Shown here: positions 502-30,871 of the stretch, piece after piece
Layout: each line of letters opens with the position of its first letter
Numbering within the stretch: position 1 is the first letter of the stretch
NCBI GenBank assembly: GCA_963682135.1
Contig: OY821645.1
Location: forward strand, 1,824,001-1,888,000
From: Methanothrix sp.
GTDB lineage: Archaea; Halobacteriota; Methanosarcinia; Methanotrichales; Methanotrichaceae
DNA length: 64,000 nucleotides
Direction: 5' to 3'
Notes under the pieces: model-generated
The model's database searches: none
The model's input: the letters and a program-made list of their open reading frames with translations, nothing else
Told to the model about the DNA's origin: nothing
Made by a program: the position numbers and the translations under genes

Positions 502-1293
502 GTGCATAAGTTGCTGACCGCAAATCACATTCATGATCTTTACAGGTACCGCGATCTGATTCTGCGCGTAGCCTGGAGTGACTTCAAGCTGCGCTACAAG
601 AACTCTGCACTGGGATTCTTATGGTCTCTCTTAGACCCGCTGCTCATGCTCGTAGTCCTTTATGTCGTATTCACAAACCTCATGCGCATTCAGGTAGAGC
701 ACTACCAGCTCTTCCTTCTGCTGGGAATAATCCTCTGGAACTTTCTGGACAGAGGAACGTCCTTAAGCATATGGGGCATTGTGGGAAAGCCAAGCCTGGT
801 GCAAAAGGTCTACTTCCCCCGGGATATTCTCGTCATATCCACCTGCATCATGGCGCTCATGATGACGGCGCTGGAGTTCGTAGTATTCGTAATATTCATG
901 GCCGTCTTTAGAGTTGTGCCCGGTATGACTCTGGCCTACTTTCCCCTCATATTTGCATGCCTTTTTCTCATCACCCTGGGATTGTCTCTGGCCCTGGCCG
1001 CCTTGAATGTCTACTTCAGAGATGTGCAATTCATCTGGAAAGTGATTGTGCAGATCGGCTTCTTTGCCACGCCAATTATATATCCGATCACCATATTTCC
1101 GGAGAATGTGCGCTGGATGGTAATGATCAATCCCATGGCCCAGATAATAACGATGATGCGCGACTGCGTGCTCTACCAAACGGGGCCTCAGCTTCTGAGT
1201 CTGGCCTATCTGGCCGTATGCTCTGTGCTGGTGCTTTTCGTAGGCTACCTGATCTTCGATCGACTGGAGCCCAAATTTGCCGAGGTGATCTAG
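502..1293 (+). CDS. wzm: ABC-2 type polysaccharide exporter permease (Wzm/RfbA)
   Basis: DFKLRYKNSALGFLWSLLDPL, RDVQFI, FFATPIIYP and NPMAQII motifs; about 6 TM segments; directly upstream of the ATPase. Confidence 0.93.
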   Translation: MHKLLTANHIHDLYRYRDLILRVAWSDFKLRYKNSALGFLWSLLDPLLMLVVLYVVFTNLMRIQVEHYQLFLLLGIILWNFLDRGTSLSIWGIVGKPSLVQKVYFPRDILVISTCIMALMMTALEFVVFVIFMAVFRVVPGMTLAYFPLIFACLFLITLGLSLALAALNVYFRDVQFIWKVIVQIGFFATPIIYPITIFPENVRWMVMINPMAQIITMMRDCVLYQTGPQLLSLAYLAVCSVLVLFVGYLIFDRLEPKFAEVI

Positions 1294-1294
1294 G

Positions 1295-2494
1295 ATGACG
1301 GTAGAGGTGGAGCACATCTGGAAGACCTTCCAGATCCCCCATGAGAAAAGGACCACGTTCTTTGAGAACCTGATGGGTTTGATGAGGCCCAACAATTATG
1401 AGACATTCTCCGTATTAAAGGACATCAGCTTCCAGGTGGAAGCGGGTGAATGCGTGGGCATAATCGGAGACAACGGCTCAGGCAAGAGCACGCTGCTCAA
1501 AATCATAGCCAATATTTTGCGGGCATCCAAGGGAACGGTCCGGGTTAAAGGCAAGATGACGCCCTTTTTGGAATTAGGAGTGGGCTTTCATCCCGATATG
1601 ACGGCCCGGGAAAATATTGGCGTTTATGGCACCATTATGGGTCTATCCAGAAGAGAGATCAATGAGAGGATCGATGATGTGATCGATTTTGCGGGCCTGC
1701 ACAAATTTGAGGATACGAAGCTGAAGAATCTCTCTTCCGGAATGCAGGTGCGTCTGGCCTTCTCCACCGCTATTCAGACCAATCCGGATGTTCTCTTGGT
1801 GGACGAGGTGCTGGCTGTGGGGGACATGGAGTTTCAGCAGAAGTGCTTTGATGTCTTCAACCGCTACCGCAAGGAAGGTGTGACGATTCTATTCGTCTCG
1901 CATGATCTGGGTGCCGTTAGAAGGTTTTGTGATAGGACGCTGCTCCTGGGTGGCGGCGAGCAGAGAGCGTTTGGGGAGACGGGCGAGATTCTGGACAGGT
2001 ATGTTTATGGTGAAAATGAGACGAGCCGAGAAGGCAAAGATGTGGCGGAGAAAGGGGCAGATCCTGCTGAGCCCAAACGGTGGGGCGACAAAAAGGTATC
2101 GATAACCGATGTTAAGTTCCTTGACAAATTCGGCAGGGAAAGCAGCAGATTTTCTTCCTTTGACACCATGACAATCAGGATATTCTACCGCGCACCGGCT
2201 ATTATTCGCGATCCCGTATTTGGAATTGCCCTGTACTCAGAGCAGGAGCAATATCTTTACGGCACTAATACTGAGCTGAAAAATATTGCTATCGACAAAA
2301 TTGAGGGCGACGGACATATCGATCTGTTGATAGAGACGATACCCATGCTATCCGGCCGTTTCCTGCTCACCGTGGCGGTGCACCCCCACGAAGGCAAAGC
2401 TTATGATTGGATAGATAAGCAATACTCCTTTGAAGTATTGCCAAAGGGACGGGACGCTGGAATCTTCGAGGTTCCCTGCAAATGGGTTACATAA
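1295..2494 (+). CDS. wzt: Polysaccharide ABC exporter ATPase with C-terminal Wzt_C carbohydrate-binding domain
   Basis: Walker A GDNGSGKST, signature LSSGMQVRLAF, DEVLAVGD, VSHD; ~150-aa C-terminal extension (RWGD...PVFGIAL...GRFLLTVAV). Confidence 0.93.
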   Translation: MTVEVEHIWKTFQIPHEKRTTFFENLMGLMRPNNYETFSVLKDISFQVEAGECVGIIGDNGSGKSTLLKIIANILRASKGTVRVKGKMTPFLELGVGFHPDMTARENIGVYGTIMGLSRREINERIDDVIDFAGLHKFEDTKLKNLSSGMQVRLAFSTAIQTNPDVLLVDEVLAVGDMEFQQKCFDVFNRYRKEGVTILFVSHDLGAVRRFCDRTLLLGGGEQRAFGETGEILDRYVYGENETSREGKDVAEKGADPAEPKRWGDKKVSITDVKFLDKFGRESSRFSSFDTMTIRIFYRAPAIIRDPVFGIALYSEQEQYLYGTNTELKNIAIDKIEGDGHIDLLIETIPMLSGRFLLTVAVHPHEGKAYDWIDKQYSFEVLPKGRDAGIFEVPCKWVT

Positions 2495-2500
2495 CTGAGG

Positions 2501-3874
2501 GTGTTCGTGTTGGATACATTCGAGATTCACGATGATGAGATAAATGTTGAAGAGATAATGCAGAAGATCAGGGAAAATATAAAGAGACGAAAGGAATCGG
2601 GCGCTTATCCGGATGTTGAGCCGCATATTTTTGACCAGACTGAAGAACAGGTGAGTCTCTGCCGGCAAACAAAGCAAGTTGCAGATATAAAGAAGAGCGA
2701 TTTGTTCATCTGTGAAGATGGGATGAAAAGGGATCTCGACTATATCAATTCTAACTGGGATATTCAGAATAATAGCTATTTTATCAGCTCTCATCGGCCC
2801 CATACAGGGAAGTTCCTCATAAAAGGCAGAGAGCTGGTACATGGGGAAGTCAAACGCTATGTTGATCCCATGATTTGGAAGCAAAAAGAGTTCAATGCAA
2901 GCGTAGTGAGGACCCTGAACGAGACCACGAAAAAGATATCAGAGATCTCACAGAGGACGATTGAGCTGGAAAGCACTTCCATAAAAAAAATCAGATCAGA
3001 GATTGGCGACAAGGTAGACGAGCAGATCGGTCTCGTAAGGTCTGAGATCAACAATGAGATCTCAACTCAAGTAAGAGCCATCGTGGCATCCATGAATCAA
3101 GAGATCGAGAACAAAGCATGGCTGGCAAATATACTTGATAAAAAGATTGGGGAATATCAGAATATCGAGACATCAGCGCCAATGCCGGAATTGGAGCTCA
3201 ATTATTTTCTCTTTGAGGAAAGATTTCGCGGCAGCAGAGCAGACATAAAACAACGGCAAACGGCTTTTCTGCATTACTTCGTGGGCTGCAAGAAAGTCCT
3301 GGATATAGGGTGTGGTCGCGGAGAATTCCTGGAGTTATTGCTGGAGAATGGTATCGGTGGACATGGCATAGATGTAGATGGAAATATGATAGATTTCTGC
3401 AAATCAAAAGGCTTGAATGCCGAGAAGATCGATGCCATATCTTATCTCGAAAAAATCGAGGATAAAAGCTTGGATGGTATACTCATAGATCAGGTAGTAG
3501 AACATCTGGAGCCCGATTACCTGATAAAGATGCTGCAGTTATGTTATAAAAAGCTCAATTTTGGATACCATATGCTTATTGAGACTGTGAACCCGTTATC
3601 ATTAGTATCATTTGTCAATTTTTATTTAGATATGGGCCATAAAAAACCAATTCACCCAGAAACGTTGAAGTTTTTAATGGCGTCGGTGAATTTTAGAGAG
3701 ATCGATACGAGGTTCTTTTCACCAATTCTAGATGAAATGAAGCTGAGGAAGATCAATATTGAAGGCGTTGAGGAAAATGATAAGCATTTGATGGATGTTT
3801 ATAACCACAACATCGATCTGCTAAATGATCTCCTTTATGGGGCCCAAGATTACGTAGTTATAGGGAAGAAATGA
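2501..3874 (+). CDS. Coiled-coil + class I SAM-dependent methyltransferase, putative glycan chain terminator/cap methylase
   Basis: VLDIGCGRGEF, QVVEHL, ETVNP; helical coiled-coil N-terminal half; 6 bp after wzt. Confidence 0.8.
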   Translation: MFVLDTFEIHDDEINVEEIMQKIRENIKRRKESGAYPDVEPHIFDQTEEQVSLCRQTKQVADIKKSDLFICEDGMKRDLDYINSNWDIQNNSYFISSHRPHTGKFLIKGRELVHGEVKRYVDPMIWKQKEFNASVVRTLNETTKKISEISQRTIELESTSIKKIRSEIGDKVDEQIGLVRSEINNEISTQVRAIVASMNQEIENKAWLANILDKKIGEYQNIETSAPMPELELNYFLFEERFRGSRADIKQRQTAFLHYFVGCKKVLDIGCGRGEFLELLLENGIGGHGIDVDGNMIDFCKSKGLNAEKIDAISYLEKIEDKSLDGILIDQVVEHLEPDYLIKMLQLCYKKLNFGYHMLIETVNPLSLVSFVNFYLDMGHKKPIHPETLKFLMASVNFREIDTRFFSPILDEMKLRKINIEGVEENDKHLMDVYNHNIDLLNDLLYGAQDYVVIGKK

Positions 3875-3908
3875 CCTTACACACTTATAATTTAAAGGAT
3901 TGCAAAAC

Positions 3909-6269
3909 ATGAAGATTGCCGTAGTAGGCCCCAGCCCAGTTCCTTATGCATACGGTGGAGCAGAGAGCTTATTTTGGACGCTGGCAGAGAGCATAAATGA
4001 TCTTACGGAGCACAATGCGGAACTAATAAAACTGCCGGTGAAAGAGCAAAACTTCTGGGATCTTATTGATTCATATCATAGCTTTTATCGTCTAGACCTT
4101 TCGCACTTTGACATGATCATCTCGACCAAATATCCGGCATGGATGGTGCAACATAAGAATCATATTATTTATCTTCAACATCATCTGAGAGGCTTGTTCG
4201 ATACGTATCACTTCTGCAATGAACCTGATCAAATTCCGGAAATATTAAAAAAAGAACTTGTGGAAGAGATACTCATTACTATCAAAAATCCTGAAGCAAA
4301 AATTGAGTCCGTATTCAGCATGTTGGACGAACTAAAGGGAAATAGCACATCATATGATCCAACCACTTTTAAATTTCCAGGACCGTTTATAAGAGAGATT
4401 GTACATTATTTTGATTCATATGCACTTTCTCCAAAGAGAATCCGCAAATACTTCTGTATATCTAGCAATGTGAAGACAAGAGTGGATTATTTTCCACCCG
4501 GTGTGAGTGTCGAAGCCATACCACATCCATCCAAGCTTGAGGGTTTACGAAGCAGAGAGTATGACTACATTTTCACTGCAAGCAGGATTGATGGTCCCAA
4601 AAGAATAAAAACTATGGTCGAAGCTATGAAGTATGTACCTCATGATATTCAGTTCAATATCGCAGGCACTGGACCCGATGAGATCGCGCTCAAAGAGATG
4701 GCAAAAGAGGACAATAGGATCAAATTTTTAGGCTTCGTAAATGAAAGGGACCTTGTAGATCTCTATTCTAACGCCCTTGCAGTTCTTTACATCCCCTATG
4801 ATGAAGATTATGGCCTGATCACTTTTGAGGCCATGAAGAGCAAGAAACCATTGATCACTGCATGCGATAGTGGTGGTCCCCTAGAGTTCGTGAAGGATTC
4901 CGTGACGGGATACGTAGTGCCCCCAGATCCAAAGATGCTGGCGGCGAAGATCAATCATTTTATAGAGCATCCGGAAGAGGCAAGGACGCTAGGCTCAAAG
5001 GGCTTCCAAGCTGTGCAAGATATCACATGGGAAAGGTTAGTTGCCAAATTGCTTGACACAAATATCGTTAAGCCTCATGGGAGGCCAAGAATTCTTGTTC
5101 TTTGTACTTATTCGTGTTATCCTCCGAGAGGTGGGGGACAGCACAGATTGTATAACCTGTACTCTCTATTGGCTAGAAATTTTGATGTGACGATATGCTC
5201 GATCATAGAAGCTAACAAACCATACCAGAACCTTCTCCTGGTGAATGGCATGAGGCAGATCTGCGTTCCCCAGGCAAGAGAGCATGCGCAAGCTCAGTGG
5301 GAAACAGAAAGGAAAAACGGGCTAAACCTCTACGATGTCTGCATGATAGACCTTATAGATAAGTCCAAGGACTATGTGCAAATAGCCAGGAATTTGATTG
5401 ATGAATCGGATATAATAATTTTTTCGCATCCATATCTCTTTAGATTGAGCAAGTATGTAGAGAAGAACAAGCGAATAGTTTATGAGTCACATAACATAGA
5501 ATATTTATTGAAAAAGGATTATATCCAAAACCAGGTTATTTCAGAGAAAATAAGGGAGATCGAGAAACAGGCATGCATAAAATCGGATATAATCCTCACG
5601 ACTTCAGAAGAGGATAAATCAGGCCTTGTTGACATTTATTCAGCCAATTCCAAGAAAATAATCGTGGCACCCAATGGCGTAGATACAAACAAGATCTTGT
5701 TTATAGATGATGACGAAAAGATAAAAACCAAGTCAATCGCAGGATTGCATTATAGTACCATCCTTTTCGTCGGCAGTTGGCACCCACCAAACCTGGAAGC
5801 ATTGGAGTTTATAGTCGATAAACTTGCAAAAAAGCTAGATGATTGCGTCATACTGGTTGTTGGCAGCGTGCGAGATTACTATCTTCAGAAGCATAAGGCC
5901 ATGCCAAAGAACGTTATGGCCTTAGGAACTGTCGATGAAGAGGAAAAATATGAGATTTATAAGCTGGCAGATATTGCAGTAAATCCCATGTTCTCGGGAT
6001 CTGGAACAAACCTTAAGATGCTCGACTACATGAGCGCAGGCATACCTGTAATTAGCACAGAGATCGGGGCGAGGGGATTGAGGGCCTCGGATTCCAGGCA
6101 TATGTTGATATGTGCCCCAGACCAAATTTATGAAAAAATCAGGAATCTCCAGGCAAATAAGGATTTGAGGGACAATCTGAGGAGGTCCGCAAGAGCTCAT
6201 GTAGAGGAAAGCTATTCTTGGGAAAAAATTGCGAAAAATGTCGAAGAGACATTACAAAAGCTAGTGTGA
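3909..6269 (+). CDS. Double-domain GT4 glycosyltransferase
   Basis: Two GT-B units: GGAE...EDYGLITFEAM, and GGGQHR...SGTNLKMLDYMSAGIPVIST. ATG 3909 preferred over TTG 3900. Confidence 0.9.
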   Translation: MKIAVVGPSPVPYAYGGAESLFWTLAESINDLTEHNAELIKLPVKEQNFWDLIDSYHSFYRLDLSHFDMIISTKYPAWMVQHKNHIIYLQHHLRGLFDTYHFCNEPDQIPEILKKELVEEILITIKNPEAKIESVFSMLDELKGNSTSYDPTTFKFPGPFIREIVHYFDSYALSPKRIRKYFCISSNVKTRVDYFPPGVSVEAIPHPSKLEGLRSREYDYIFTASRIDGPKRIKTMVEAMKYVPHDIQFNIAGTGPDEIALKEMAKEDNRIKFLGFVNERDLVDLYSNALAVLYIPYDEDYGLITFEAMKSKKPLITACDSGGPLEFVKDSVTGYVVPPDPKMLAAKINHFIEHPEEARTLGSKGFQAVQDITWERLVAKLLDTNIVKPHGRPRILVLCTYSCYPPRGGGQHRLYNLYSLLARNFDVTICSIIEANKPYQNLLLVNGMRQICVPQAREHAQAQWETERKNGLNLYDVCMIDLIDKSKDYVQIARNLIDESDIIIFSHPYLFRLSKYVEKNKRIVYESHNIEYLLKKDYIQNQVISEKIREIEKQACIKSDIILTTSEEDKSGLVDIYSANSKKIIVAPNGVDTNKILFIDDDEKIKTKSIAGLHYSTILFVGSWHPPNLEALEFIVDKLAKKLDDCVILVVGSVRDYYLQKHKAMPKNVMALGTVDEEEKYEIYKLADIAVNPMFSGSGTNLKMLDYMSAGIPVISTEIGARGLRASDSRHMLICAPDQIYEKIRNLQANKDLRDNLRRSARAHVEESYSWEKIAKNVEETLQKLV

Positions 6270-6273
6270 TACC

Positions 6274-7437
6274 ATGAGAGTTGCCTTTATTGTGCCGCGC
6301 TACGGAGAAGATATCGTTGGCGGAGCAGAATACTATGCGCGAATGGTGGCAGAACACCTAAATGATGAACATACTATTGAGGTTCTTACCACATGTGCCA
6401 GGGATTATCTCACCTGGAAGAACGAATATAAACCCGGCACAGAATCAGTCAACGGTGTGATAGTAAGGCGCTTCAAGACAGATCGAGAAAGGGTACTCTC
6501 AAGGCATACAGAGATAGAACAAAAAGTGTTCTATAATAATGCGCATGGAAAGGATGACGAACTCAGGTGGATTGATGAACAAGGACCGCATTCATCAGGT
6601 TTAATTAAGTATATTAAATCCCAAAAAAATAATTATGATGGCTTTATCTTTTTTACATTCAGGTACTTCCTGAGCTATTACGGCATCATGGAAGTGGGCA
6701 CAAAATCATTAATTGCCCCGTTTGCTGAGAACGATCCGGCACTGAATCTTTCGACAACTCAGGAGATGTTTAATAATGTTGGCGGGATCATATACAGCAC
6801 CCCAGAGGAGAGACAGCTGATTTTAAACAAGGTCGATTTCAAAGACGGTGAGAAATTCTGGGACCTAATAGGCTTCGGTATTGAGATTCATGCTGACTGT
6901 AATGAAGTGGACGAATTAAAAAATGAGAATTATATTATATACCTTGGGAGGATCGACGGCTCTAAAGGGTGCTATACTCTTTTCGAATACTACCAGAAGG
7001 CCGCAAGAGAATTGAGTACTATGCCAAATCTGATTCTGGTGGGCCATAAGGGAATAGATATACCAAAGCATAAAAAGATCAAGAATATTGGCTTTGTATC
7101 AGAGGAAAAGAAGTTCTCATTGCTAATGAATTCGAAATTCCTGATCATGCCTTCCCCTTATGAAAGCCTCTCAATCGTTACCCTGGAAGCCATGGCCTGC
7201 AAAACTCCCGTTCTGGTAAATGGGGAATGCGCGGTCTTAAAGGGACATTGCAAGAGAAGCAATGCGGGATTATGGTACAATGATTATGATGAGTTTATGG
7301 AATGCTCGAGATTACTCGCCTCAAATGACGAGCTTAGGAAACAGATGGGAAGGAATGGGGAGCGATATGTTAATGAAAATTATAACTGGGTGGACCTCAA
7401 AAGGAAATATTCTAATCTACTGGAAAAAATTAAATGA
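6274..7437 (+). CDS. GT4 glycosyltransferase
   Basis: GGAEYYAR, YLGRIDGSKG, PSPYESLSIVTLEAMACKTPV. Confidence 0.92.
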   Translation: MRVAFIVPRYGEDIVGGAEYYARMVAEHLNDEHTIEVLTTCARDYLTWKNEYKPGTESVNGVIVRRFKTDRERVLSRHTEIEQKVFYNNAHGKDDELRWIDEQGPHSSGLIKYIKSQKNNYDGFIFFTFRYFLSYYGIMEVGTKSLIAPFAENDPALNLSTTQEMFNNVGGIIYSTPEERQLILNKVDFKDGEKFWDLIGFGIEIHADCNEVDELKNENYIIYLGRIDGSKGCYTLFEYYQKAARELSTMPNLILVGHKGIDIPKHKKIKNIGFVSEEKKFSLLMNSKFLIMPSPYESLSIVTLEAMACKTPVLVNGECAVLKGHCKRSNAGLWYNDYDEFMECSRLLASNDELRKQMGRNGERYVNENYNWVDLKRKYSNLLEKIK

Positions 7438-7657: not shown

Positions 7658-9847
7658 ATGAATTGCTCTAATAAATATTATAATATAATAGCAGCTTACG
7701 TTCTTGCTATCACTCTGAGCCTGGCTATTTTGACTTGGATAATGCAACTTTGGAGAGCAGACTTATCTATTCCTTTTTATCAAGACTGGGATGCAAATTT
7801 TTTCCAGATGACAATCAAAGGCATGATGGACAATGGCTGGTACCAATCAAACGTTTTTCTTGGAGCGCCTGAAAGCCAATATCTGTATGATTTCCCCTTT
7901 GCGTCGAACTTAGACATGATATTAATAAAATTAATCTCCCTTTTTGTCTCCACCTATCCATTAATCCTCAATATCTACTTATTGATTACGTTTCCTCTTA
8001 TAACCATCACATCCATGATCTGCTTCAGGCAGTTTAAGATTCCATATTCTCTCTCCATCATGGGAGGAGTGCTTTACACCTTTATGCCATATCACTTTCT
8101 ACGGATTGGAGCTAGCCACCTGAATCTAGTAGGTTATTACATAATACCACTCGTAATCCTGGTCATCCTTTGGATCAACGAAGGCAAATCCCTGATCTTC
8201 TCAAGAATTGATGGCAAAATAACGCTGGACATAATAAATAAAAGATCTTTTGCTTGCATTATTATTTGTATATTAGTTTCAACCTCATGTATTTATTATT
8301 CTTTTTTTACATGTTTCTTGTTGCTGATATCTGGCTTAGTCCTTTTTCTATCTCATAAAGATAGACTCCCATTGCTTATATCTGGCGTGCTTATTGCGAT
8401 AATCGTCATAGGCGTCTTTGTCAACAATGCTCCCACATTGGTATATCAACAGGAATATGGCAAGAACCCGATAGTAGCGGTTCGCAGTCCGGGTGGATCT
8501 GAATATTATGGATTAAAGATTACCAAGCTTCTCTTGCCTCTTGGCGGTCACAGGATACCGCTGCTGGCAGATGTTAGCCAGAGATACGGGAGCACAACGC
8601 TTCTGCCTAATTCGGGTAGTGAGACCTTGGGGGGATTAGGAGCTATCGGTTTCCTGGCCTTGATTCTATGGTCGTTCTCCCGAATAGCAAGTGAATGTGG
8701 GGCTAAATTGAGCGACCGGGAGAAGGATCTGAACGGATTAGGTATCTTGAACCTTTCATCCTTATTGCTAGGTACCCTAGGTGGGTTTGGATCTGTCTTC
8801 GCCTATCTTGTGTCCCCCCAGATAAGAGATTACTCCCGGATCAGTATTTTTATGGCCTTTTTTTCGATATTTGCTCTCCTAATACTATTAGATGCATCTG
8901 CAAATAAGTATGCTAGGAGCAAACGCATCAGGTTCCTTTTCAGGGGGTTACTAGTCATTTTCTTGATTGCAGGTGTAATGGATCAGACCACTGTATATTT
9001 CGTTCCTCCATACAACTCTACAAAAGCTGAATTTGTCAGCGATGGAGATTTTATAAAGACGATCGAAAGGATGATGCCAGAAGGCGCCATGATTTTTCAG
9101 CTTCCTTATGTACCCTTTCCAGAAAACCCTCCTGTCAATAAAATGATTGATTATTCGCATCTTAAAGGATACCTGCACTCGGAAAAGTTGAGATGGAGTT
9201 ATGGAACGATGAAGGGAAGGCCAATGGATGCATGGCAAGGAATGGTAGCAGGCATGCCTGTTGGCGATATGCTCAAGACGCTGTCTGAAACGGGCTTTAA
9301 AGGTATTTATATAGATAGCTATGGCTATCAGGACGGGGGGTCTAAATTGATATCCGATATCATGCAGATCCTCGGTGCCGAGCCCTTAATTAGTGATAAT
9401 AAACGGCTATACTTTTTCGATATGACATTGTACAATAAGAAAATCAAAGCCGAATCATCTAAAAATGGAGAGATCGCTGTAGCATTTAGTTCCGACTGGT
9501 ATGGTATAGAAGACTGGTCCGGCGTCCCAACACGCTGGATGCAAGCTGATGCAACGCTATTTGCATTTTCACCCGAAAATCGTACGACTACCTTGAGCCT
9601 CCAGACACTCAGCTTCTATCTTCCCAGGACACTAGAGATCTACAATGGCGACGATCTGGTAGCACAGGTGGCTGTACCCATAAGTCTCATCAACGTGAGT
9701 AAGCTCATCCACCTGTCGAAAGGAGCAAACACCGTGCGGTTTCACGTACCGGAGGGCTGCGATAGGCCGAACGATATCATAGGGCTAAATAATAAAGATA
9801 CCAGATGTTTGAGCGTAGCCGTGCAGAATCTCAGTGTAGAGGCTTAA
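7658..9847 (+). CDS. Multi-pass membrane protein with C-terminal extracytoplasmic domains; probable GT-C-fold (YfhO-like) polyprenol-phosphate sugar transferase
   Basis: More than 10 hydrophobic segments; acidic loop after TM1 (QDWD); YTFMPYHF; IFQLPYVPFPE; C-terminal beta-sandwich (WYGIEDW...RWM); located in the glycan locus. Confidence 0.55.
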   Translation: MNCSNKYYNIIAAYVLAITLSLAILTWIMQLWRADLSIPFYQDWDANFFQMTIKGMMDNGWYQSNVFLGAPESQYLYDFPFASNLDMILIKLISLFVSTYPLILNIYLLITFPLITITSMICFRQFKIPYSLSIMGGVLYTFMPYHFLRIGASHLNLVGYYIIPLVILVILWINEGKSLIFSRIDGKITLDIINKRSFACIIICILVSTSCIYYSFFTCFLLLISGLVLFLSHKDRLPLLISGVLIAIIVIGVFVNNAPTLVYQQEYGKNPIVAVRSPGGSEYYGLKITKLLLPLGGHRIPLLADVSQRYGSTTLLPNSGSETLGGLGAIGFLALILWSFSRIASECGAKLSDREKDLNGLGILNLSSLLLGTLGGFGSVFAYLVSPQIRDYSRISIFMAFFSIFALLILLDASANKYARSKRIRFLFRGLLVIFLIAGVMDQTTVYFVPPYNSTKAEFVSDGDFIKTIERMMPEGAMIFQLPYVPFPENPPVNKMIDYSHLKGYLHSEKLRWSYGTMKGRPMDAWQGMVAGMPVGDMLKTLSETGFKGIYIDSYGYQDGGSKLISDIMQILGAEPLISDNKRLYFFDMTLYNKKIKAESSKNGEIAVAFSSDWYGIEDWSGVPTRWMQADATLFAFSPENRTTTLSLQTLSFYLPRTLEIYNGDDLVAQVAVPISLINVSKLIHLSKGANTVRFHVPEGCDRPNDIIGLNNKDTRCLSVAVQNLSVEA

Positions 9848-16413: not shown

Positions 16414-16505
16414 TTATAGCAAAGCCGACGAAATATATAGATGAAATTGGTAGAATATAGTAGTATATCTATATCAAATAGTTGACTTTCGATCAGCTAA
16501 GGTCC

Positions 16506-17647: not shown

Positions 17648-17666
17648 TTATTTTGCCTCCATTGAG

Positions 17667-18398
17667 TCAGCGGCCATTTCCCCGAAGGTCCCACCAGAGC
17701 CGCAAAATCTGCTGCCCCATATCATTAGCATCCTTAACAATATTGACCTTAGTGGACGCCGACTCCTTCCACTCAACGGGTATTTCTTTAATTCTATATC
17801 CTCGCCTTTGCCCCCTCACGAGGAGCTCTGTATCCCAAAACCAATGATTATCTTTAATATCATCCAATAAGCAGGTGATTTTATCCCGTTTAAATGCTTT
17901 GAAGCCGCATTGATGGTCTAAGACCTTGGAACCGAGAAGGTGCCGGACCATTCTATTATAAACCGTGCTTGCCAACAGGCGCTTTGTATTCCTTTTTGCC
18001 TTGCTCGCCGCCATCATCCTTGATCCAATTGCAATGTCGTATCCTTCCTTCGCCACGGCATTTATAATATCCGGCAAATAGGTCATATCTGTTGCTAGAT
18101 CTGCATCAATATAACAAACAACATCGCCTAAACAGGACTTGATAGCCAAATTTAGAGCTTTGCCGCGTCCCAGTCTCTGGCGAGAGCTTAAAAGATGTAT
18201 ATCGGAATTTTCGCGGGCCATATCAAGGGCAAGATCTCGGGTCCTATCATTGCTTCCATCTTCCGCGACAATTATCTCACCCGGAATGTTTGAATTGGCG
18301 AGAGTACTTTGTGTTATGAGAACCGCACGTTTTATTCTGGATTCCTCATTGTATGCAGGAATAACAACAGAGACAATATATTTCGGTGCCGTTCCAAC
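17667..18398 (-). CDS. GT2 dolichol/polyprenol-phosphate glycosyltransferase (DPM1/AglD-like); start codon unresolved
   Basis: The frame stays open upstream of the track ATG (18221) to 18398 and encodes VSVVIPAYNEE...IVAEDGSNDRT; then GRGKAL, YIDADL, DHQCGFKAF, WFWDTELL. Confidence 0.85.
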   Translation of the reverse strand, partial: VGTAPKYIVSVVIPAYNEESRIKRAVLITQSTLANSNIPGEIIVAEDGSNDRTRDLALDMARENSDIHLLSSRQRLGRGKALNLAIKSCLGDVVCYIDADLATDMTYLPDIINAVAKEGYDIAIGSRMMAASKAKRNTKRLLASTVYNRMVRHLLGSKVLDHQCGFKAFKRDKITCLLDDIKDNHWFWDTELLVRGQRRGYRIKEIPVEWKESASTKVNIVKDANDMGQQILRLWWDLRGNGR

Positions 18399-23597: not shown

Positions 23598-23602
23598 GAC
23601 AA

Positions 23603-25627
23603 ATGCAAACATCAATATATAAAGTAGTTATCGCACTTATTTTCATTCTTAACATAATGAGCCTGCCGGCATTCTCTGTAACCGTATCCATGAGCTCAAA
23701 TAATGCAAATGCCGAAGTCTCCCTAATCCAAAGATATGATATCGATAAGTCAACCGATCTTAGAGTCCGGACGGGCCTTGGAGAAGGCACCATCATGCAG
23801 ACTCAGTGGGCATGCGGTCAAGGCAATAACAAAATCAGCCAATCTTTGAGCAACGGGTATCAAAGTGCGTACAGCGCAATCTATTCAGACGGCTACTTCG
23901 GCCTGAACTCCAACACTCTGGCCACAGGAACGAACTTGGACTTGAGAGCAAACTTAGGTGCATCTGGTGAAACCAGAAGTCTGCTTTCCGGATCGACAGG
24001 ATCTTCCTTTGCTACCCAGGAGGCCTGGACATTAGGCGGCAGCCAGACCTCAAATCAAGCCCTAATTGTACAAGGTGACATAGTTAGAGCCGATCAGAGT
24101 ACCGGTATCATGGGCGCCCTTGGATATTCATTGGGCCGGTCTGGGTTAAAAGATAAAGAGGTGGAGGTTACAGGAGGACTTAACGGCCAGGGCATAGTGT
24201 TCAGCCAGATGACCGCCGTTGCCTCAGATGAGGCCAGCGCGTCAGGAGAGATCAGAAGCATCAGCCAGGACAGCAAGTCCTACTCAACTATAAAAGCCAC
24301 TTCTGCCCAAGAGGAGACCTATTCCTATCTCTCCTCTCGCGATGGTCTGCACTCTACTCTTACAGCCAACGCCAATGAACACGCAGGAGTACAGCAAAAT
24401 ATAGCGGCGGTTAGTGGCATCATGGCTTATGCCAGTGCAAGAGAGGGCACCGATTTCCTCAGTTTTGCGGAAGAAGGGAGCATCGCATCCGGCAGCATAA
24501 TCGCTTCGACAGACGGGCGTCCCTGCATTAATAAAGAGCTCACAGGAGACACACAGAGCACAGTACTGCAAGCCGCACCTCTCGCTGGAGCTGAACTCTT
24601 TGCCCTGCCTCTGCCCAGCTCAACCAGACCGTCATCCATAATTGATAACAGTAATATCGAACACATATTTGTTCGAGGAGGAGATGGCTCACTTTGGGAC
24701 AACAAGGGCGGAGACTGGTACTCATTGGGAGGATATTTCAACCTCAATCCATCGGCAGTCAAGGATGGCAATGGCAACATCCATATTTTTGTGCAGGGCG
24801 GCGATCTCGGCCTCTGGGACAGAAAGCTCACAAGCACTATGGGCGGGGATTGGACCGGCCTCGGAGGACAAATAACATCATCTCCCAGTGCCGTAATAGA
24901 GCCTGCATATCCCTCTTGGATTGCAATCGCGGTGAAGGGAACCGATAATTCTCTCTGGATACGAAACCTCTATACCACGACAATGACATCCGGCTCTTGG
25001 AGCAACATGGGCGGATACATAAAGGGAGATCCATTCTTGGTTGCTTCAAATGATGGTTCCAACTATGTGTATGCCCTTGCAAGGGGAGGCGATGATGGAT
25101 TATGGATCAACAAAGCGCAATCCGGACCAACGACCGCTAGCTCAGTAGAGTGGTATGGATTCGGCAACAGCCTCGCCTCAGACCTGAGCGGCGCGATTGA
25201 GCCGGTCTCAAACGGCTTTCTTAAGGTGGCCGGTCGGGGTTCGGACAACGGCCTCTGGATGTGTGACATCGATTTAGTTGCCTCCCCCAGCGGTGAAATT
25301 GAATATGCTTGGAGCTCATTAGGCGGAATCATAACCTCAAACCCTTATGTTGCATTCGATACTAGCGGCAATATCCACACCTTCGCTCGCGGCAGTGACA
25401 ATGGACTCTGGGATAACAAGGGTATCTGGGGAAGCGGCGTGTATGAGCATAATTGGTATTCATTGGGAGGTGTAATTGCCTCAGATCCAAAGCCCTTAAT
25501 GAATCAGAATACGGATAAGATAGATATAGCTGTCCAGGGAGGAGACGGAGCACTATGGATTAACAGGATGCAACCGAATAACCCAGCTAATTCCAATTGG
25601 TATGGTCTCGGTGGTTGGATCACCTAA
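23603..25627 (+). CDS. Secreted protein: same unknown N-terminal domain + 7-repeat PLL-like propeller
   Basis: ATG 23603 with GGTGA RBS, 5 bp after the previous stop; signal peptide; seven WxxLGG repeats. Confidence 0.85.
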   Translation: MQTSIYKVVIALIFILNIMSLPAFSVTVSMSSNNANAEVSLIQRYDIDKSTDLRVRTGLGEGTIMQTQWACGQGNNKISQSLSNGYQSAYSAIYSDGYFGLNSNTLATGTNLDLRANLGASGETRSLLSGSTGSSFATQEAWTLGGSQTSNQALIVQGDIVRADQSTGIMGALGYSLGRSGLKDKEVEVTGGLNGQGIVFSQMTAVASDEASASGEIRSISQDSKSYSTIKATSAQEETYSYLSSRDGLHSTLTANANEHAGVQQNIAAVSGIMAYASAREGTDFLSFAEEGSIASGSIIASTDGRPCINKELTGDTQSTVLQAAPLAGAELFALPLPSSTRPSSIIDNSNIEHIFVRGGDGSLWDNKGGDWYSLGGYFNLNPSAVKDGNGNIHIFVQGGDLGLWDRKLTSTMGGDWTGLGGQITSSPSAVIEPAYPSWIAIAVKGTDNSLWIRNLYTTTMTSGSWSNMGGYIKGDPFLVASNDGSNYVYALARGGDDGLWINKAQSGPTTASSVEWYGFGNSLASDLSGAIEPVSNGFLKVAGRGSDNGLWMCDIDLVASPSGEIEYAWSSLGGIITSNPYVAFDTSGNIHTFARGSDNGLWDNKGIWGSGVYEHNWYSLGGVIASDPKPLMNQNTDKIDIAVQGGDGALWINRMQPNNPANSNWYGLGGWIT

Positions 25628-25702: not shown

Positions 25703-28700
25703 TTAATTCAATAATGTTGCATCAAGTTTTGTTATCGAACCTCCCTGGCTCTGCCATGCACTCCATGCAGTTCCATCCCAATTTCTCTGCCAAAGGGCAC
25801 CATCAGTCCCAATTGCATAGACTCCGACATTGCTTCCAGATGATACTGCATCAAGGTCTGTTATCGCGCCACCCAGGCTCTGCCAATCACTCCAGGCAAC
25901 ACCATTCCAATTTCGGTACCATAGGCCACCATCTCCACCGCGGGCGAAAACATAGACATTGCCACCAGATGATGTCGAATCAAGGGCAGTTATCGCGCCA
26001 CCCAGGCTCTGCCAATCACTCCAGGCAACACCATTCCAATTTCGGTACCACACGGCATCATCTCCACCACGGGCAAAGACATAGACATTGCCACCTGATG
26101 ATGTGGCATCAAGATCTGTTATCGCGCCACCCAGGCTCTGCCAATCGGCCCAGTTAACGCCATTCCAATTTCGGTACCATAAGGCATTATCACCACCAAT
26201 TCCGAACGCATAAACACTGCCTGCAGTAGATGTGGCATCAAGGTTTGTTATAATGCCTCCCAGGCTCTGCCAATCGGCCCAGTTAACGCCATTCCAATTT
26301 CGGTACCATAAGGCATTATCACCACCAATTCCGAACGCATAAACACTGCCCGCAGTAGATGTGGATTCAAGTTTTGTTATGATGCCTCCCAGGCTCTGCC
26401 AATCGGCCCAGTTAACGCCATTCCAATTTCGGTACCATAAGGCATTATCTCCACCAATTCCAAACGCATAAACACTGCCTGCAGTAGATGTGGCATCAAG
26501 GTCTGTTATGAAGCCACCCAGGCTCTGCCAAGCACCCCACGCACCTAGATTGAGCTGTTTGATCTGTAGGTCGTTACCGGTGCCTATTGCAGATATGGTC
26601 AATACTTCGGACAGCATCGCAGTGTTCGACCATCCCGAATATGCGGTCTTCTGGGGGAATCCCACTGCAGGAGCCGGATACACTGTGGTATCGCCCACCA
26701 CGTTAATAGCTCGCACCCTGTAGTAGTATGGTGTACCGGGAACTAGTGTGGTATCGGTGTATGTTACCACATTAGGCCCAACTGTGAATTCAGTCAGATC
26801 CACAGTGAATGCGGCATCCTTTGCTCTTTGAATGAAGAATCCGGTTTCGCTGATGGAATTGTCCACCCAGTTCAGAGTAGCAACCGGTGGTACTGTTCCG
26901 GATAATGCGACTACCAGATTAGAAGGAGCCCTTGGCGGCACCACAAAGGCCACAGCATGCATCATATCCATCTCTTCATGGGAGAGAAGATGGCAATGCA
27001 TCATGTACTCCCATCCAAAGTTGACGATATGATTGATCACCGTAACTGGTTCACCACTCGGGTCCTGGAATCCTAGCGGCCCTCCTTTGAGTTCAGCACC
27101 CTCCGGCATAGTCGGGTCTATCAACCGCTCACTGTTGGGAACTTCGAAAGGCTGCGTGGGCGCTATGGGCCTCAAAGCGATGATGGTGTCTTGCAGCGGG
27201 TTAACCCGGAATGTCTCCTTCCATCCCAGCTCATTGAGATCTGGCACACGAAGGGCATTGTCCCAGGCCACCCGGTTGATCAATTGGGCATTGAACAGGT
27301 GCACGTGTATGGTGTGCGTGTCCACTCCGTTATGGGTGATCTTCCAGATCTGGGTTCCATCTCCCAGCGATCCGATCTGAGTTCCATAGACCGAACCCTT
27401 GACAATCTCCAATGGTGGAGATGCAAAGGGATAGAGAAGCAGATTCTGATTGCCGGCTCCAGTGAATGGCACCTCCAAACCTAACAGGCCACTCATTCGT
27501 CCGTAGTCGGTCTCGAAGGCTTCACCCATCTCATCCTGGATGGCCTTCGGCTCGAAGGGAATAGTCACCGTCGAGCCGGCAAGTGTCTGGAATGTCTTGC
27601 TGTTCTCAAAAATCCTCGCATAAGGATCTGCTGCCAGATCCGTCCTGTCGTAGGCTGAGTTGTATTCCGCCTGCGGCACAATGATCTCGTCCTGGGATGC
27701 CTCGAAGACGCCCTTCTTATTGTTCACCGTGTCCTTGGCAAATACCGCCTGCAATTTGGTCAGATCGTAGGATTGCACGGGGGCGGCTGCTACCCGGATC
27801 TGCATGATGGTGCGCGTGTTGGGACCATAGCCTGCCTGGGTCGTAGGTGCGCCACCGGTATCAGTCTGATCCGGATGGTTGGTGTAGTAGTCATAGCGCG
27901 GATCGATTGCCGGGAAGGGTGCAGGAGCATCGTTGTACAATATGAGTGTTCTTCCGGCATATGCGGAGAAGTCTACTATGACATCCGCCCGTTCCGCCGG
28001 ACCCAGCAAGAGAGTTCCCTGGTTAACATTCCCGAAATCGAAGTTTGTTTGATCCCAGTTCCAGTTGACCGGCTGATTGGGCAGCACCACCGGTGCCGGC
28101 AAGAAGCCGCCTTCCGTTCCTATTTGAATGAAAGATGGGCCCGCTTTGGCTGGATCAGGCACACCGCCATCCCTTCCGTCTGTCGGCCAGTTTGCCGGCA
28201 AGCCTGCACAATTTGATGCAGGAATCATGCCAACCTCGGTCGGATTAGTGTAGACGGTTGCGGTTGCTGCAGCACCGCCTCCGACAGTATCCGTAATCGT
28301 AACCCCAGGCGCAGTATAACCGCTGCCCACAGTTAGCAGTTCGATGCCGGTAATTACGCCATTCACTACTGTCGCTTTAGCAGTTGCACCTTTTCCATTT
28401 CCGATAGTATCAGTTATGGTGACCTTTGGATCTACGTAATTGCTGCCCCCGCTCGTGACGGTTATACTGCTGATTATATTATTGGTCTCATAAATCTGCA
28501 GGTTGAAGAACCGGTCGTCGGCTGCATTCAGAATACGGAACCGATAAGCTTTGGGCTCTACCTCCAGGTAGGGATAGGCCATGCCGTTGACCACCGGAGT
28601 GTCTACGAAAGACTCCATGGCCATAGAGTTATGGGGCACGCCCGGAATCATTGGCGGCTCATTGGGGCCGGCATAGGGATTGGGGACTGGTCCGTGCGCA

Positions 28701-30871
28701 ATATCCGTTGTGGGCGGCCAGAACCATGGTCCATAATGCCAGCGGCCGAATGCATTCATGCCTCCGATATCCCAGGGATTTTGGTTTGTCATATAGACAT
28801 GAGGCATCCAGAGGTCGCCGGTATTGGCATTCAGAATTTTTCCCGTATCTGGATCTCTGGCAGCTGTCCCCCAGTTCCAGGTGGGGTCCTGGGCTGCAAT
28901 GGTCGTTGCATCGACAAAGGTCTTGTCCTGAATGACCAGGGGAATTCCTACATCAGGAAGGACTTTAACCGGCGGATTGAGGTTGATTCCGGCAAGGTTG
29001 GTGCCGTCTATCATATCCTTCTCAACCTGGTCGGTTATCAAGTACCCGGCTGCTTCTCCAGCATAGACATTGATCCGAGTGATACCATAGGAATGATCAT
29101 GGTAAAACATCAGCCTGGCGCTCTGCTGGTTGTTATAGTAGAAGGTCATCGATCCGTCGCCTGGATCAGGCATGTCCGGAACATTGCGCATGCTGACGCC
29201 TTTGGGGTAGGAGGTGGTCTCTCCGGCAGGAGTTATCCACTGATGAGGCGTTCCATCGCTAATCCATGGAACATAGCCGCCGTGCAGATGTACTGTGGCA
29301 CGGTTCTGGGTATAAAGCTCCATGATGTGGCCTATGGTTACGACCGCAGGTGCTGGATTTGTCTTGAGCTTGATCTGGAATTTATTCGCAGTCAAACCCG
29401 TGCCCAACACACGGTACTCTCCATTGTAAGCATCCGGTACAAAGCCGTGTAACATAATCAATTGCCCCTGAGCAAGGTTATGAGGCATCATTGTCATGAC
29501 CTCGACTACAGCTCCGCCTACTGGCGTCACCGTATTGGCCATAATCATGTCGGGACCCATTCCAGCACCCATAACCGTTGTGTCCACTGGCAGGAATAGG
29601 TCGCCGCCCTCGCCCTTGGCAAGCAGGTTAAAGAATTTGATGCGCACCGGACGGTCCCTCTGGGAGACTATGATGGGACCCATGTACTGAGGATTTGTCA
29701 CGGCAATAGCCGGAGTGCTGTCGGGTTTCAGGATAGGATTGTTGTTCGCATCCAGCAACGCAACGCCAGCTCCAGGAACTACTGGGGTAGCCAGCTGCAC
29801 ATAACCCCTCAGCCTGGTCGCAGGAAGATTGGTATGCATCTTCTGGCTGTACTCAACCAATGCAATCTCATAATAATCACACCCAAAGAGCGTGACTGCT
29901 GTGATGACGCCACCTACCACCGTTGCCTTTCCAATGGCATGTGTCGCCGCCCCACCACCTCTGAATGTAATGGTCGGATTGGCAGAATATCCGCTCCCAC
30001 CACTGTCGATGGTGACACTAGAAACTGTATCACCGGTCAAATGGGCAGTGGCTGCAGCACCTGTGCCGGTCCCATCAGTGATCTCAATTGTGGGAGCAGA
30101 TGTGTAGCCTTTTCCACCAGGTGGATAAGTTGCCTGATCTGGAGTGGCCTGAATAAGATTCGGTAGCGTATCAACGAACTTTCTAATTCCACCGGTTAGA
30201 GCGCCACCTAATATTGCTGTAGCTGTTGCGCCAGTGCCCGGACCGGCCGCATCAATAATGGTAACTAGAGGTGCAGTGTAACCGCTGCCTGATGAACCGG
30301 GATTTATGTTGATGCTTGTAATAACACCACCAATAGCCGTTGCGGTAGCCGCAGCTCCTGAGCCAGTACCGTAGACGTCTGAAATTACAGCAATGGGACT
30401 GACATAACCGCTGCCTCCATTTGTCAGAGTGATACTGGCAATAGAACCAGTAGGCATGGGGCTGTTGGCATAGTTAGGATAGGGGCCGAAGTAGTGAGGA
30501 ATGCCGCCTGGGTCAAACGCGGGTGTTATCGTAGGCGCAACGCCTGGGGCAGCCTCACGGGCCAGGGCCATAGCCTCTTCACGAGCTGCTTTGTTGCGTT
30601 GTGCCGCAGCTTTCCTCTCCGCAGGCAATTGCATCCTCATTTTGAGAGATTGCCTTGCATCGAAGGTAACATTTTCATCTAAATTCGGGCTATCCGATGA
30701 ATTGAGAGCAATGCTGTTTAATTCAATGCTCTCATTGGCAGCACTGCCATTTAAAGACAATATGGCAAGCAGCATTCCTGCCAGAAATAATATTGCAGCA
30801 GCTTCAAGAAAAGAGAACCTCTCTTTGAATTTGCATTTGGCCGATTTATTACGAAAGTCCATATCAATCAT
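25703..30871 (-). CDS. Large secreted multicopper oxidase + FN3 + 7-repeat PLL-like propeller
   Basis: Cu motifs VHLHGG, FYHDH, HTIHVH and HCHLLSHEEMDMM; AYRFRILNA; FN3 (APSNL...WVDNS...YTD...YYYRVRA); seven 43-aa repeats. Confidence 0.9.
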   Translation of the reverse strand: MIDMDFRNKSAKCKFKERFSFLEAAAILFLAGMLLAILSLNGSAANESIELNSIALNSSDSPNLDENVTFDARQSLKMRMQLPAERKAAAQRNKAAREEAMALAREAAPGVAPTITPAFDPGGIPHYFGPYPNYANSPMPTGSIASITLTNGGSGYVSPIAVISDVYGTGSGAAATATAIGGVITSININPGSSGSGYTAPLVTIIDAAGPGTGATATAILGGALTGGIRKFVDTLPNLIQATPDQATYPPGGKGYTSAPTIEITDGTGTGAAATAHLTGDTVSSVTIDSGGSGYSANPTITFRGGGAATHAIGKATVVGGVITAVTLFGCDYYEIALVEYSQKMHTNLPATRLRGYVQLATPVVPGAGVALLDANNNPILKPDSTPAIAVTNPQYMGPIIVSQRDRPVRIKFFNLLAKGEGGDLFLPVDTTVMGAGMGPDMIMANTVTPVGGAVVEVMTMMPHNLAQGQLIMLHGFVPDAYNGEYRVLGTGLTANKFQIKLKTNPAPAVVTIGHIMELYTQNRATVHLHGGYVPWISDGTPHQWITPAGETTSYPKGVSMRNVPDMPDPGDGSMTFYYNNQQSARLMFYHDHSYGITRINVYAGEAAGYLITDQVEKDMIDGTNLAGINLNPPVKVLPDVGIPLVIQDKTFVDATTIAAQDPTWNWGTAARDPDTGKILNANTGDLWMPHVYMTNQNPWDIGGMNAFGRWHYGPWFWPPTTDIAHGPVPNPYAGPNEPPMIPGVPHNSMAMESFVDTPVVNGMAYPYLEVEPKAYRFRILNAADDRFFNLQIYETNNIISSITVTSGGSNYVDPKVTITDTIGNGKGATAKATVVNGVITGIELLTVGSGYTAPGVTITDTVGGGAAATATVYTNPTEVGMIPASNCAGLPANWPTDGRDGGVPDPAKAGPSFIQIGTEGGFLPAPVVLPNQPVNWNWDQTNFDFGNVNQGTLLLGPAERADVIVDFSAYAGRTLILYNDAPAPFPAIDPRYDYYTNHPDQTDTGGAPTTQAGYGPNTRTIMQIRVAAAPVQSYDLTKLQAVFAKDTVNNKKGVFEASQDEIIVPQAEYNSAYDRTDLAADPYARIFENSKTFQTLAGSTVTIPFEPKAIQDEMGEAFETDYGRMSGLLGLEVPFTGAGNQNLLLYPFASPPLEIVKGSVYGTQIGSLGDGTQIWKITHNGVDTHTIHVHLFNAQLINRVAWDNALRVPDLNELGWKETFRVNPLQDTIIALRPIAPTQPFEVPNSERLIDPTMPEGAELKGGPLGFQDPSGEPVTVINHIVNFGWEYMMHCHLLSHEEMDMMHAVAFVVPPRAPSNLVVALSGTVPPVATLNWVDNSISETGFFIQRAKDAAFTVDLTEFTVGPNVVTYTDTTLVPGTPYYYRVRAINVVGDTTVYPAPAVGFPQKTAYSGWSNTAMLSEVLTISAIGTGNDLQIKQLNLGAWGAWQSLGGFITDLDATSTAGSVYAFGIGGDNALWYRNWNGVNWADWQSLGGIITKLESTSTAGSVYAFGIGGDNALWYRNWNGVNWADWQSLGGIITNLDATSTAGSVYAFGIGGDNALWYRNWNGVNWADWQSLGGAITDLDATSSGGNVYVFARGGDDAVWYRNWNGVAWSDWQSLGGAITALDSTSSGGNVYVFARGGDGGLWYRNWNGVAWSDWQSLGGAITDLDAVSSGSNVGVYAIGTDGALWQRNWDGTAWSAWQSQGGSITKLDATLLN
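25706..26605 (-). repeat. Seven ~129-bp (43-aa) tandem repeats, internal copies near-identical
   Basis: CCAGGCTCTGCCAATC recurs at 129-bp spacing (e.g. 26131, 26260); unit SVYAFGIGGDNALWYRNWNGVNWADWQSLGGIIT. Confidence 0.92.

Follow-up and report, generated by a model that had tools for sequence, protein, structure and literature searches.

PLL-type seven-bladed propellers as a putative glycan-binding tail of secreted proteins beside a glycan-export cassette in Methanothrix

SLH, choline-binding and GW domains dock proteins on wall polymers, carbohydrate-binding modules (CBMs) are carried by secreted enzymes, and the corresponding genes are often located near wall-polymer loci. On the export side, WbdD-type chain termination belongs to the CBD-dependent ABC-transporter pathway of O-antigen synthesis in E. 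coli O8/O9a. Fucosides and O-methylated sugars are ligands of the seven-bladed Photorhabdus lectins PLL and PHL (PropLec7A; IPR007132/DUF346; PF26607), and according to a competition assay they share common sites (PMC12203525). The binding sites of PHL form two rings, a hydrophobic one for fucose (Thr194, Val172, Trp199, Trp214) and a polar one for galactose (Arg186, Glu188, Trp202 and others) (PMC5584973). For the Methanotrichales, sheath (SH) proteins and sheath adhesins have been described (PMC11576556). Here, we analyzed 64,000 nucleotides of the closed 3.04 Mb genome of Methanothrix sp. (G000:C1:1824001-1888000; this whole stretch is called the window), in which four secreted proteins carry a PLL-type propeller and are located within and beside a set of glycan-export genes. 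G-numbers are genome labels (G000 is the source genome) and L-numbers are labels of fetched loci.

Our data indicate that the propeller is a widespread, mobile and swappable add-on module on unrelated secreted cargos. The reading we prefer, with a probability of about 0.45, is that it acts as a lectin tail which can be carried by different secreted proteins and tethers them to 6-deoxy or O-methyl glycans of the cell itself in general. Such an arrangement works like display of the CBM or SLH type and employs a known lectin family; a new system, as it had been proposed in the initial annotation of this stretch, is not established by these data. As in SLH, choline-binding, GW and CBM docking, a single portable binding module is attached to secreted proteins that are otherwise unrelated. 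The fold is different, however, the self ligand in the window is putative and the tails are swapped between congeners (PLL, FG-GAP-like, DUF7910/FRG1).

The initial annotation had listed the four propeller reading frames and had named C25 and multicopper oxidase as two of the cargos, and motifs and domains confirmed these assignments. The gene at 12018..14441 (minus strand) encodes an N-terminal propeller (approximately residues 85-382, positions ~13296-14189) followed by a beta-helix. At 18535..21714 (minus strand) we found a C25 (gingipain-type) protease (PF01364, E 1.3e-33; PF08126) with propeptide, GHG and CSC motifs and a C-terminal propeller (~18625-19605). The protein encoded at 23603..25627 (plus strand) starts at an ATG within ORF 23546-25627 (674 aa in the database) and joins a domain that we call NTb to a C-terminal propeller (24659-25624) with all 7 Trp pairs intact. 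The fourth gene, at 25703..30871 (minus strand), encodes a large multicopper oxidase with four His-rich copper motifs, fn3 and a C-terminal propeller (~25706-26599) that is built from near-identical 43-aa repeats. An N-terminal hydrophobic segment is present in all four proteins and, as previously noted, none of them has a C-terminal transmembrane segment or PGF motif. A lipoprotein anchor of the C25 protein was considered and rejected, since the Cys following the signal peptide is not conserved in G015. The beta-helix protein had been regarded as putatively glycan-active, but its beta-helix is PMP-like and gave no match to a catalytic family.

A blade profile (hidden Markov model, HMM) built from the repeats of this genome detected seven blades in each of the four proteins, the first blade of the oxidase being degenerate (7.6 bits vs. 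37-48 for the remaining ones). The claim of exactly seven repeats per protein therefore holds for the blades but not for the strict motifs, which number 5, 5, 5 and 6 (WxxLGG) and 2, 3, 4 and 1 (RGxDxxLW) in the beta-helix, C25, NTb and oxidase proteins, respectively. When the 23603 protein was compared by phmmer with Photorhabdus PLL/PHL, all eight distinct PDB sequences that were returned matched (E 1.4e-47 to 3.5e-31), and PF26607 is precomputed in the database for this protein. For one propeller of the four, that of the NTb protein, a single-sequence model (pLDDT 73.5) was compared by Foldseek and the top 20 listed PDB rows were all PLL/PHL (TM-score 0.70-0.76). The complex of PHL with L-rhamnose (6RGR) was among the matches. 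The suggested likeness to PLL/PHL is borne out by these comparisons. Both pocket tryptophans (W199/W214 in PHL numbering) occur within 5 blades of the beta-helix protein, 5 of C25, 7 of NTb and 6 of the oxidase, and the pair is retained in nearly all blades of eight paralogs that share 32-45% identity. Taken together, the propellers are homologous to the PLL/PHL lectins; of the sugar pockets that had been expected, the hydrophobic Trp pockets for fucose and O-methyl groups are kept, whereas the polar pockets are lost. From these residues, the propellers are likely to be multivalent binders of 6-deoxy or O-methyl groups. They share with PLL/PHL the seven-bladed fold, the repeat motif and the two-Trp hydrophobic pockets. 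In contrast to the free lectins, they are domains of secreted multidomain proteins, they form a clade specific for the Methanotrichaceae and their binding is predicted.

To define how widely the module is distributed, we carried out a profile search, in which 12,350 cluster representatives passed a threshold of E<=1e-3 and 6,583 one of 1e-10. Among 119 of the best 150 relatives that were scanned for partner domains, the propeller was combined, for example, with proteases (S8, C1, C13, C25, M14, M23, C39, trypsin), amidases, glycosidases (GH1/17/25), CAP, PKD and RHS. The source genome itself holds eight propeller genes with beta-helix, C25, oxidase, NTb and unknown cargos, of which four are located in the window. 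The eight genes on unrelated cargos and the 12,350 relatives uphold the earlier view of the propeller as a portable tag. In a survey of the phylum, propellers were found in 9 of 301 genomes, and a second archaeal genus has an expansion of its own (6 of 7 genomes). The statement that no archaeal equivalent had been described was too strong for the domain, because Table 1 of PMC11186620 records PropLec7A homologs for the Archaea; no paper on lectin-docked display in archaea was found in the literature listings searched. The closest named relatives of the propeller genes of the window come from Methanothrix/Methanosaeta and other Methanotrichaceae. In a quick tree (128 rows, midpoint root, 15 redundant loci and partial domains excluded), three propellers of the window and the four unlinked ones of G000 fell into a 40-row Methanotrichaceae clade (SH-aLRT 99). 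The oxidase propeller was placed outside this clade on a long branch, with a core blade identity of 0.65 vs. ~0.40. Local duplication as origin of the four propellers was rejected, since the beta-helix and C25 propellers have their nearest paralogs in unlinked genes (for the beta-helix one, the gene at genome position 2353264) and the oxidase propeller is not a member of the clade. A 2224-aa SpvB/TcdB-mid/RHS protein (P0009) also ends in a clade-like propeller, which suggests use as a targeting domain.

Exchange of tails was observed at a protease slot near wzt. FG-GAP-like tails are present on C25 and NTb-M10 proteases at this slot in G001 and G025, and the NTb-M10 proteases of G029 and G022 have DUF7910/FRG1 tails instead; the C25 and NTb-M10 proteases of G001 share one alternative tail. 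We take the FG-GAP-like and the DUF7910/FRG1 tails to be lectin-like. FG-GAP/IPR013517 is the entry given for PropLec7B (PMC11186620). Counting the propeller, at least three types of tail are thus interchangeable at one chromosomal slot, and in these few Methanothrix cases the tail type does not follow the Wzt type. A bolder formulation would be that the sheathed Methanotrichaceae use an exchangeable glycan address to expose proteases, oxidases and adhesins that lack an anchor. A variable surface-glycan cassette would be paired with a lectin tail for a self glycan (PLL propeller, FG-GAP-like propeller or DUF7910 trefoil), the O-methyl cap recognized by Wzt for export would also be the target of the PLL version, and the Acidimicrobiia would apply this logic to their autolysins. 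We consider this formulation rather doubtful.

The NTb domain covers residues 45-326 of ORF 23546-25627 and was modeled as an all-beta meander (pLDDT 95.6). It is common to the 23603 gene, to the M10 protease gene upstream of it (BLAST E 9e-10) and to two further genes of G000; its positions are 22143-22952 and 23678-24520 of the window (plus strand) and 2226964-2228490 and 2517558-2520104 of G000. Matches extend over ~217 or 280 residues and are usually joined to M10 proteases. Of the 59 congeners, 37 have NTb, as do 7 of the 9 other genomes of the family, and it was not detected in any of the 291 non-family genomes searched. The C25, oxidase and beta-helix proteins do not contain it. Its fold had no clear counterpart in the PDB (best VIA Z 8.2, root-mean-square deviation 3.8 over 128 residues, LptA, with porins tied) and no clear match in BFVD; the ESM Atlas gave no match. 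NTb as a hidden SH anchor was set aside, because no profile match to the SH family of this genome was obtained and the hhalign probability of NTb vs. SH was 0.13%. For this comparison the profile was made from the SH family of G000, and the fold libraries showed no SH structure. A complex prediction of the SH protein with NTb scored 0.00 and speaks neither for nor against binding. The upstream M10-type metalloprotease (22071..23597, plus strand; PF00413, HExxHxxGxxD) is a secreted protein with N-terminal NTb domain and without propeller, which the initial annotation had not mentioned. Wherever it was found (G000, G010, G015, G062, G069, G073), the M10 gene directly precedes the NTb-propeller gene. 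In G199 (L117:8356-10761) a natural fusion joins NTb, an M10 protease (HExxH) and a PLL propeller in one protein. Because of this fusion, the adjacent M10 and NTb-propeller genes of the window probably act as a protease-lectin pair.

The export genes open with Wzm, the ABC-2 permease of the polysaccharide exporter (502..1293; PF01061, E 9.5e-20), and Wzt, an ATPase with C-terminal cap-binding domain (Wzt_C; 1295..2494; PF14524, E 1.5e-29); all genes of this cassette up to 9847 are on the plus strand. The closest structural relative of Wzt is the Aquifex WzmWzt (8DKU, best PDB match, E 6.9e-67), which aligned over residues 3-382. According to PMC9445017, the CBD of Aquifex Wzt binds a 3-O-methyl cap via Leu300, Thr346, Ala348, His350 and Trp362, and His355 touches the next sugar. 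Here, we found that T359, A361, H363, H365 and W372 align with Aquifex T346, A348, H350, H355 and W362, so that 5 of 6 checked residues of the cap pocket are identical, the sixth being L300 -> A312. Wzt is followed by an S-adenosylmethionine (SAM) methyltransferase with a long N-terminal half (2501..3874; Methyltransferase/MetW families on residues 260-399), which is probably a coiled-coil as judged from the composition of residues 131-225. Two GT4 genes carrying three GT4 domains come next, a two-domain one (3900..6269; PF00534/PF13692 in two stretches) and a second one (6274..7437; PF00534, E 1.5e-15). Because the cap pocket is conserved and the long methyltransferase and the two GT4 genes follow Wzt, the predicted export of a methyl-capped polysaccharide by Wzm/Wzt is well supported, and with it the earlier view that the locus exports a methyl-decorated glycan. 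The likeness to Aquifex (PMC9445017) comprises Wzm, a Wzt with CBD and methyl pocket, an adjacent long methyltransferase and GT4 enzymes. Different from CBD-dependent export in Aquifex and E. coli, the host is an archaeon without lipopolysaccharide (LPS), and there is no sequence match to the WbdD structure. From its position after Wzt, the 2501..3874 methyltransferase would be the chain terminator that adds the methyl cap; neither a WbdD structure nor a characterised terminator was among its 4 PDB matches.

A second module comprises a GT2 enzyme, a second methyltransferase, an EamA-type flippase and a polytopic protein, and it is split by IS1634 and the beta-helix gene. The polytopic membrane protein with soluble tail (7658..9847) gave no Pfam or NCBIfam match, and its putative GT-C label is based on 10 hydrophobic segments and context. 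Thus, Wzm, Wzt, GT4, GT2 and both methyltransferases of the initial annotation were recovered, but its GT-C label found no family match. On the minus strand are the small EamA/ArnE-ArnF-like flippase (16506..16895; PF00892; NF002816, E 1.7e-14, below its cut-off), the second SAM methyltransferase (16892..17647; PF08241, E 3.3e-22) and the open frame of a Dol-P-sugar synthase-like GT2 (17667..18398; PF00535 positions 1-164 matched). The GT2 frame 17667-18414 contains the full domain, but no ATG, GTG or TTG precedes it and ATG-TGA is present directly upstream in frame; either an ATT just before the domain serves as the start or the start is disrupted. Since a canonical start is lacking, the GT2-methyltransferase-flippase-membrane-protein module may be impaired. 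With a GC content of 0.408, the cassette core is below both the propeller genes (0.475-0.50) and the genome as a whole (0.501).

Does this cassette make the specific ligand of the propellers? According to such a dedicated system, its methyl cap or a methyl side sugar would be read inside by Wzt and outside by the propeller, and tail type and cassette would change together. The conserved methyl-cap pocket of Wzt, the preference of the H-sites of PLLs for O-methylated sugars and the shared alternative tail of the two proteases of G001 fit this idea, and so does an NTb-propeller gene of G365 that adjoins GT4, GT4, a methyltransferase (49%) and GT2. However, linkage in the family argues against it. 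The other 4 of 8 propeller genes of G000 are located 42-121 kb from the nearest GT2/GT4 gene and at least 149 kb from a wzt, among housekeeping genes, and 7.6% of this genome lies within 10 kb of a GT2/GT4 gene. When we tallied 44 non-redundant archaeal propeller sites by hand (many contigs being short), wzm/wzt was found within 30 kb at 2 of 44 and any GT2/GT4 in the fetched flank at 6 of 44. Among 59 congeners, propellers were present in 15 and some Wzt in 34 (a close one in 16). The capping methyltransferase was found in 7 of these genomes, homologs of the membrane protein in 6 and close homologs of the second methyltransferase in 3. Propellers did not overlap with Wzt, the methyltransferases or the membrane protein beyond chance (p 0.17-1.0), in a sample in which kin are not independent and in which many genomes are incomplete, so that the power is limited. 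A specific pairing of the propellers with the GT2-methyltransferase-membrane-protein module was rejected for the genus on these p values.

Individual genomes point in the same direction. G062 (99% complete) has 4 propeller genes, with the M10/NTb-propeller pair among housekeeping genes, and no Wzm, Wzt or Wzt_C was detected in it; neither Wzm nor Wzt_C was detected in the single contigs of G026 and G086, which also have propellers, and none of the 7 propeller genes of G199 is on its wzm/wzt contig. Conversely, G012 (75% complete) has a near-identical Wzm/Wzt/methyltransferase set (Wzt 93%, methyltransferase 80-86%) and no detected propeller. G015 carries a different Wzm/Wzt (42%/52%, without Wzt_C) and different methyltransferases but has kept the C25, M10 and NTb-propeller genes at 72-75%. 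Directly before its different wzm/wzt pair lies a broken remnant that is 95% identical to the wzm of the window (L006:11265-13657), and this remnant is the footprint of a cassette replacement. Full-length clade propellers occur in eight congeners, and G000 is the only one of these with the membrane protein or the second methyltransferase. It can be seen that the cassette has been exchanged between genomes while the propeller genes stayed, and one co-evolved tag-cassette system with its own glycan as ligand, which had been the core of the earlier proposal, is for the most part not supported in Methanothrix. Propeller genes are largely unlinked to glycan loci in relatives within the Methanotrichaceae, and wzm/wzt was located in the flank of 1 of 58 bacterial propeller loci. 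A dedicated system is unlikely on this evidence.

A different situation was observed in the Acidimicrobiia. Three actinobacterial loci (L110:3644-17260, L152:9717-20000, L153:3244-15833) have propeller-tagged secreted proteins, among them an amidase and an S8 protease, interleaved with wzm, wzt-CBD and GT2-methyltransferase fusions, and two of these loci contain a homolog of the 7658-9847 protein. In G362, G363 and G364, propeller genes share a contig with Wzt_C at a distance of no more than 10 kb and have homologs of the Wzt, the GT2 and the second methyltransferase of the window around them, and G362 and G363 additionally carry a homolog of the membrane protein (34-36% identity). These three genomes were chosen after L110 was known and are not an unbiased sample. 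Their gene order, with Amidase_2 among the cargos, would also suit a dedicated system. Propeller-tagged enzymes at wzm/wzt loci are present in G000 and G015 and also in G362, G363, G364, G420, G528 and G593. The propeller cargos of the Acidimicrobiia (Amidase_2, a weak glucosaminidase, S8, sugar dehydrogenase) fit docking on the own wall. Homologs of the membrane protein were found in 35 of 251 genomes of this class, an even draw in which kin are not independent and whose tallies include one unpublished genome (G600). A pairing of propellers with the GT2-methyltransferase-membrane-protein module was marginal here (4/11 vs. 35/251, p 0.051; 0.14 without the centre genome) and was likewise rejected.

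The cargos also bear on the question of whose glycans are bound. Characterised PLL/PHL lectins act on host glycans (PMC5584973, PMC12203525), and the propellers might accordingly target foreign glycans (LPS, capsule or exopolysaccharide (EPS) of partners, granule matrix) for adhesion or remodelling, with the island as a hot spot of surface genes. Several cargos are adhesin-like beta-helices, a DUF11 gene of the sheath-adhesin type lies 3 kb away and the spread is patchy (15/59 congeners, 9/301 genomes of the phylum). But the amidase and glucosaminidase cargos in or beside the wzm/wzt loci of Acidimicrobiia suit self-wall targeting better, and since the four proteins have no other anchor, they would be lost from the cell if the tag bound foreign glycans exclusively. 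We regard foreign targets as quite unlikely. Tethering to self glycans is favored by the conserved protease slot with its changing lectin-like tails and by the wzm/wzt loci of the Acidimicrobiia. A self ligand is plausible without the cassette of the window, because the sheath of Methanosaeta concilii is reported to be N-glycosylated through rhamnose (PMC2952790, a review), because 6RGR is a rhamnose complex, and because RmlC- and RmlB-like genes of the rhamnose pathway are located elsewhere in the genome (1.31 Mb).

Several observations weigh against general self-glycan tethering. In the Acidimicrobiia, Wzt_C is present in 10 of 11 propeller genomes, compared with 131 of all 251 genomes (p 0.011, or 0.020 when the centre genome is left out). 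In 3 of the 9 non-centre genomes with both, the propeller is within 17 kb of Wzt_C, compared with ~0.2 expected; in the other 6 of 9 the two are on different contigs. In this class, the link of the propeller to export of capped polysaccharides is tighter than a generic module predicts. In seven Methanothrix genomes, an NTb-family gene is located within 30 kb of wzt with differing far-side flanks, and since the gene is kept near Wzt in all of them, this neighborhood is not random. As to the pockets, the equivalent of PHL T194 is Ser or Thr in just 7 of 27 blades, with Gly mostly in its place, and the polar galactose pattern (Arg-x-Glu or the Trp202 equivalent) was present in 0 of 23 blades inspected among the 28 of the window. 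With the Thr194 equivalent rarely Ser/Thr and without the polar sites, the propellers may bind weakly or with a different specificity. The same residues would agree with a propeller that is a protein-binding or structural scaffold rather than a working lectin, with retention via NTb or an uncleaved signal anchor, and so would the restriction of the NTb meander to the family. Retention of the Trp pair over eight paralogs stands against such a scaffold; the Ser/Thr contact of PLLs is called additional, "if present" (PMC12203525), and the C25, oxidase and beta-helix proteins lack NTb. We consider a scaffold improbable.

In the self-glycan reading, the region would be a variable cell-envelope island with two loosely coupled parts. 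The first (502-18398) would be a replaceable glycan cassette: the GT4 enzymes might build a lipid-linked chain, the long methyltransferase would cap it, Wzt would read the methyl cap and Wzm/Wzt would export the chain, and the GT2-methyltransferase-flippase-membrane-protein set may decorate it with side sugars outside. The second part would be a block of secreted enzymes and adhesin-like proteins with a PLL-type propeller that expanded in one Methanotrichaceae clade. This propeller would act like a CBM, as a multivalent tether to sugars of the own sheath or matrix such as rhamnose-linked sheath glycan, and would not be matched to the product of the cassette of the window. Neither the propeller family nor the concept of a portable wall-binding module is new. 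Methanothrix, one of the major methanogens that use acetate, provides the scaffold of anaerobic granules, and in the literature listings searched we found no account of enzyme retention outside its protein sheath beyond SH-fused adhesins. A glycan-binding tail, if true, would be a second display route besides these adhesins. With this locus, export of a methyl-capped glycan in the manner of O-antigens can be tested directly in an archaeon, and three unrelated lectin-like tails swapped on the same proteases at one slot constitute a natural experiment on tail-glycan matching.

SH proteins represent a known case of anchor-free surface display in this genus (PMC11576556), as is proposed for the propeller proteins, but the four propeller proteins did not match an SH profile built from G000. 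A keyword search of the supplementary files available for that paper gave no match for propeller, lectin or three accessions tried. The sheath-adhesin-type gene 3 kb from the propeller block (33723-42752, minus strand) encodes a 3009-aa secreted protein. It contains ~15 DUF11 repeats, and its SH-like domain (residues 2394-2723) retrieves the SH array of the genome by iterative search.

The oxidase belongs to a family of very large multicopper proteins (950-3000 aa) of anaerobes with variable tails (6344 matches among 7997 scored), in which fn3, PKD, Ig, FG-GAP, PF02018, PF25490 or PF26607 were found as tails. An RNA run (0.05 share) over the oxidase gene consisted mostly of contigs of other organisms (<95%) and says nothing either way on expression. 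G069 has three tandem C25-propeller paralogs (L020:17063-19666, L021:1-6660), and the start of a fourth C25 gene is located at the contig end. Beside a C25-propeller gene of this genome, an 813-aa propeller protein is encoded (L022:3097-5538), the N-terminal part of which has no Pfam match and, by eye, begins like a membrane glycosyltransferase.

Two further features went unmentioned in the initial annotation. A WcbI-family polysaccharide biosynthesis protein is encoded at 10057..11475 (minus strand; PF18588, E 1.2e-38), and an IS1634 transposase (14796..16391, plus strand; NF033559, E 3.9e-120) separates the beta-helix gene from the GT2-methyltransferase-flippase genes. More distant from the propeller block, the window contains a tubulin/FtsZ-family gene (52326-53435) as well as a Type ISP-like restriction-modification protein and a second DDE transposase (58066-62765).

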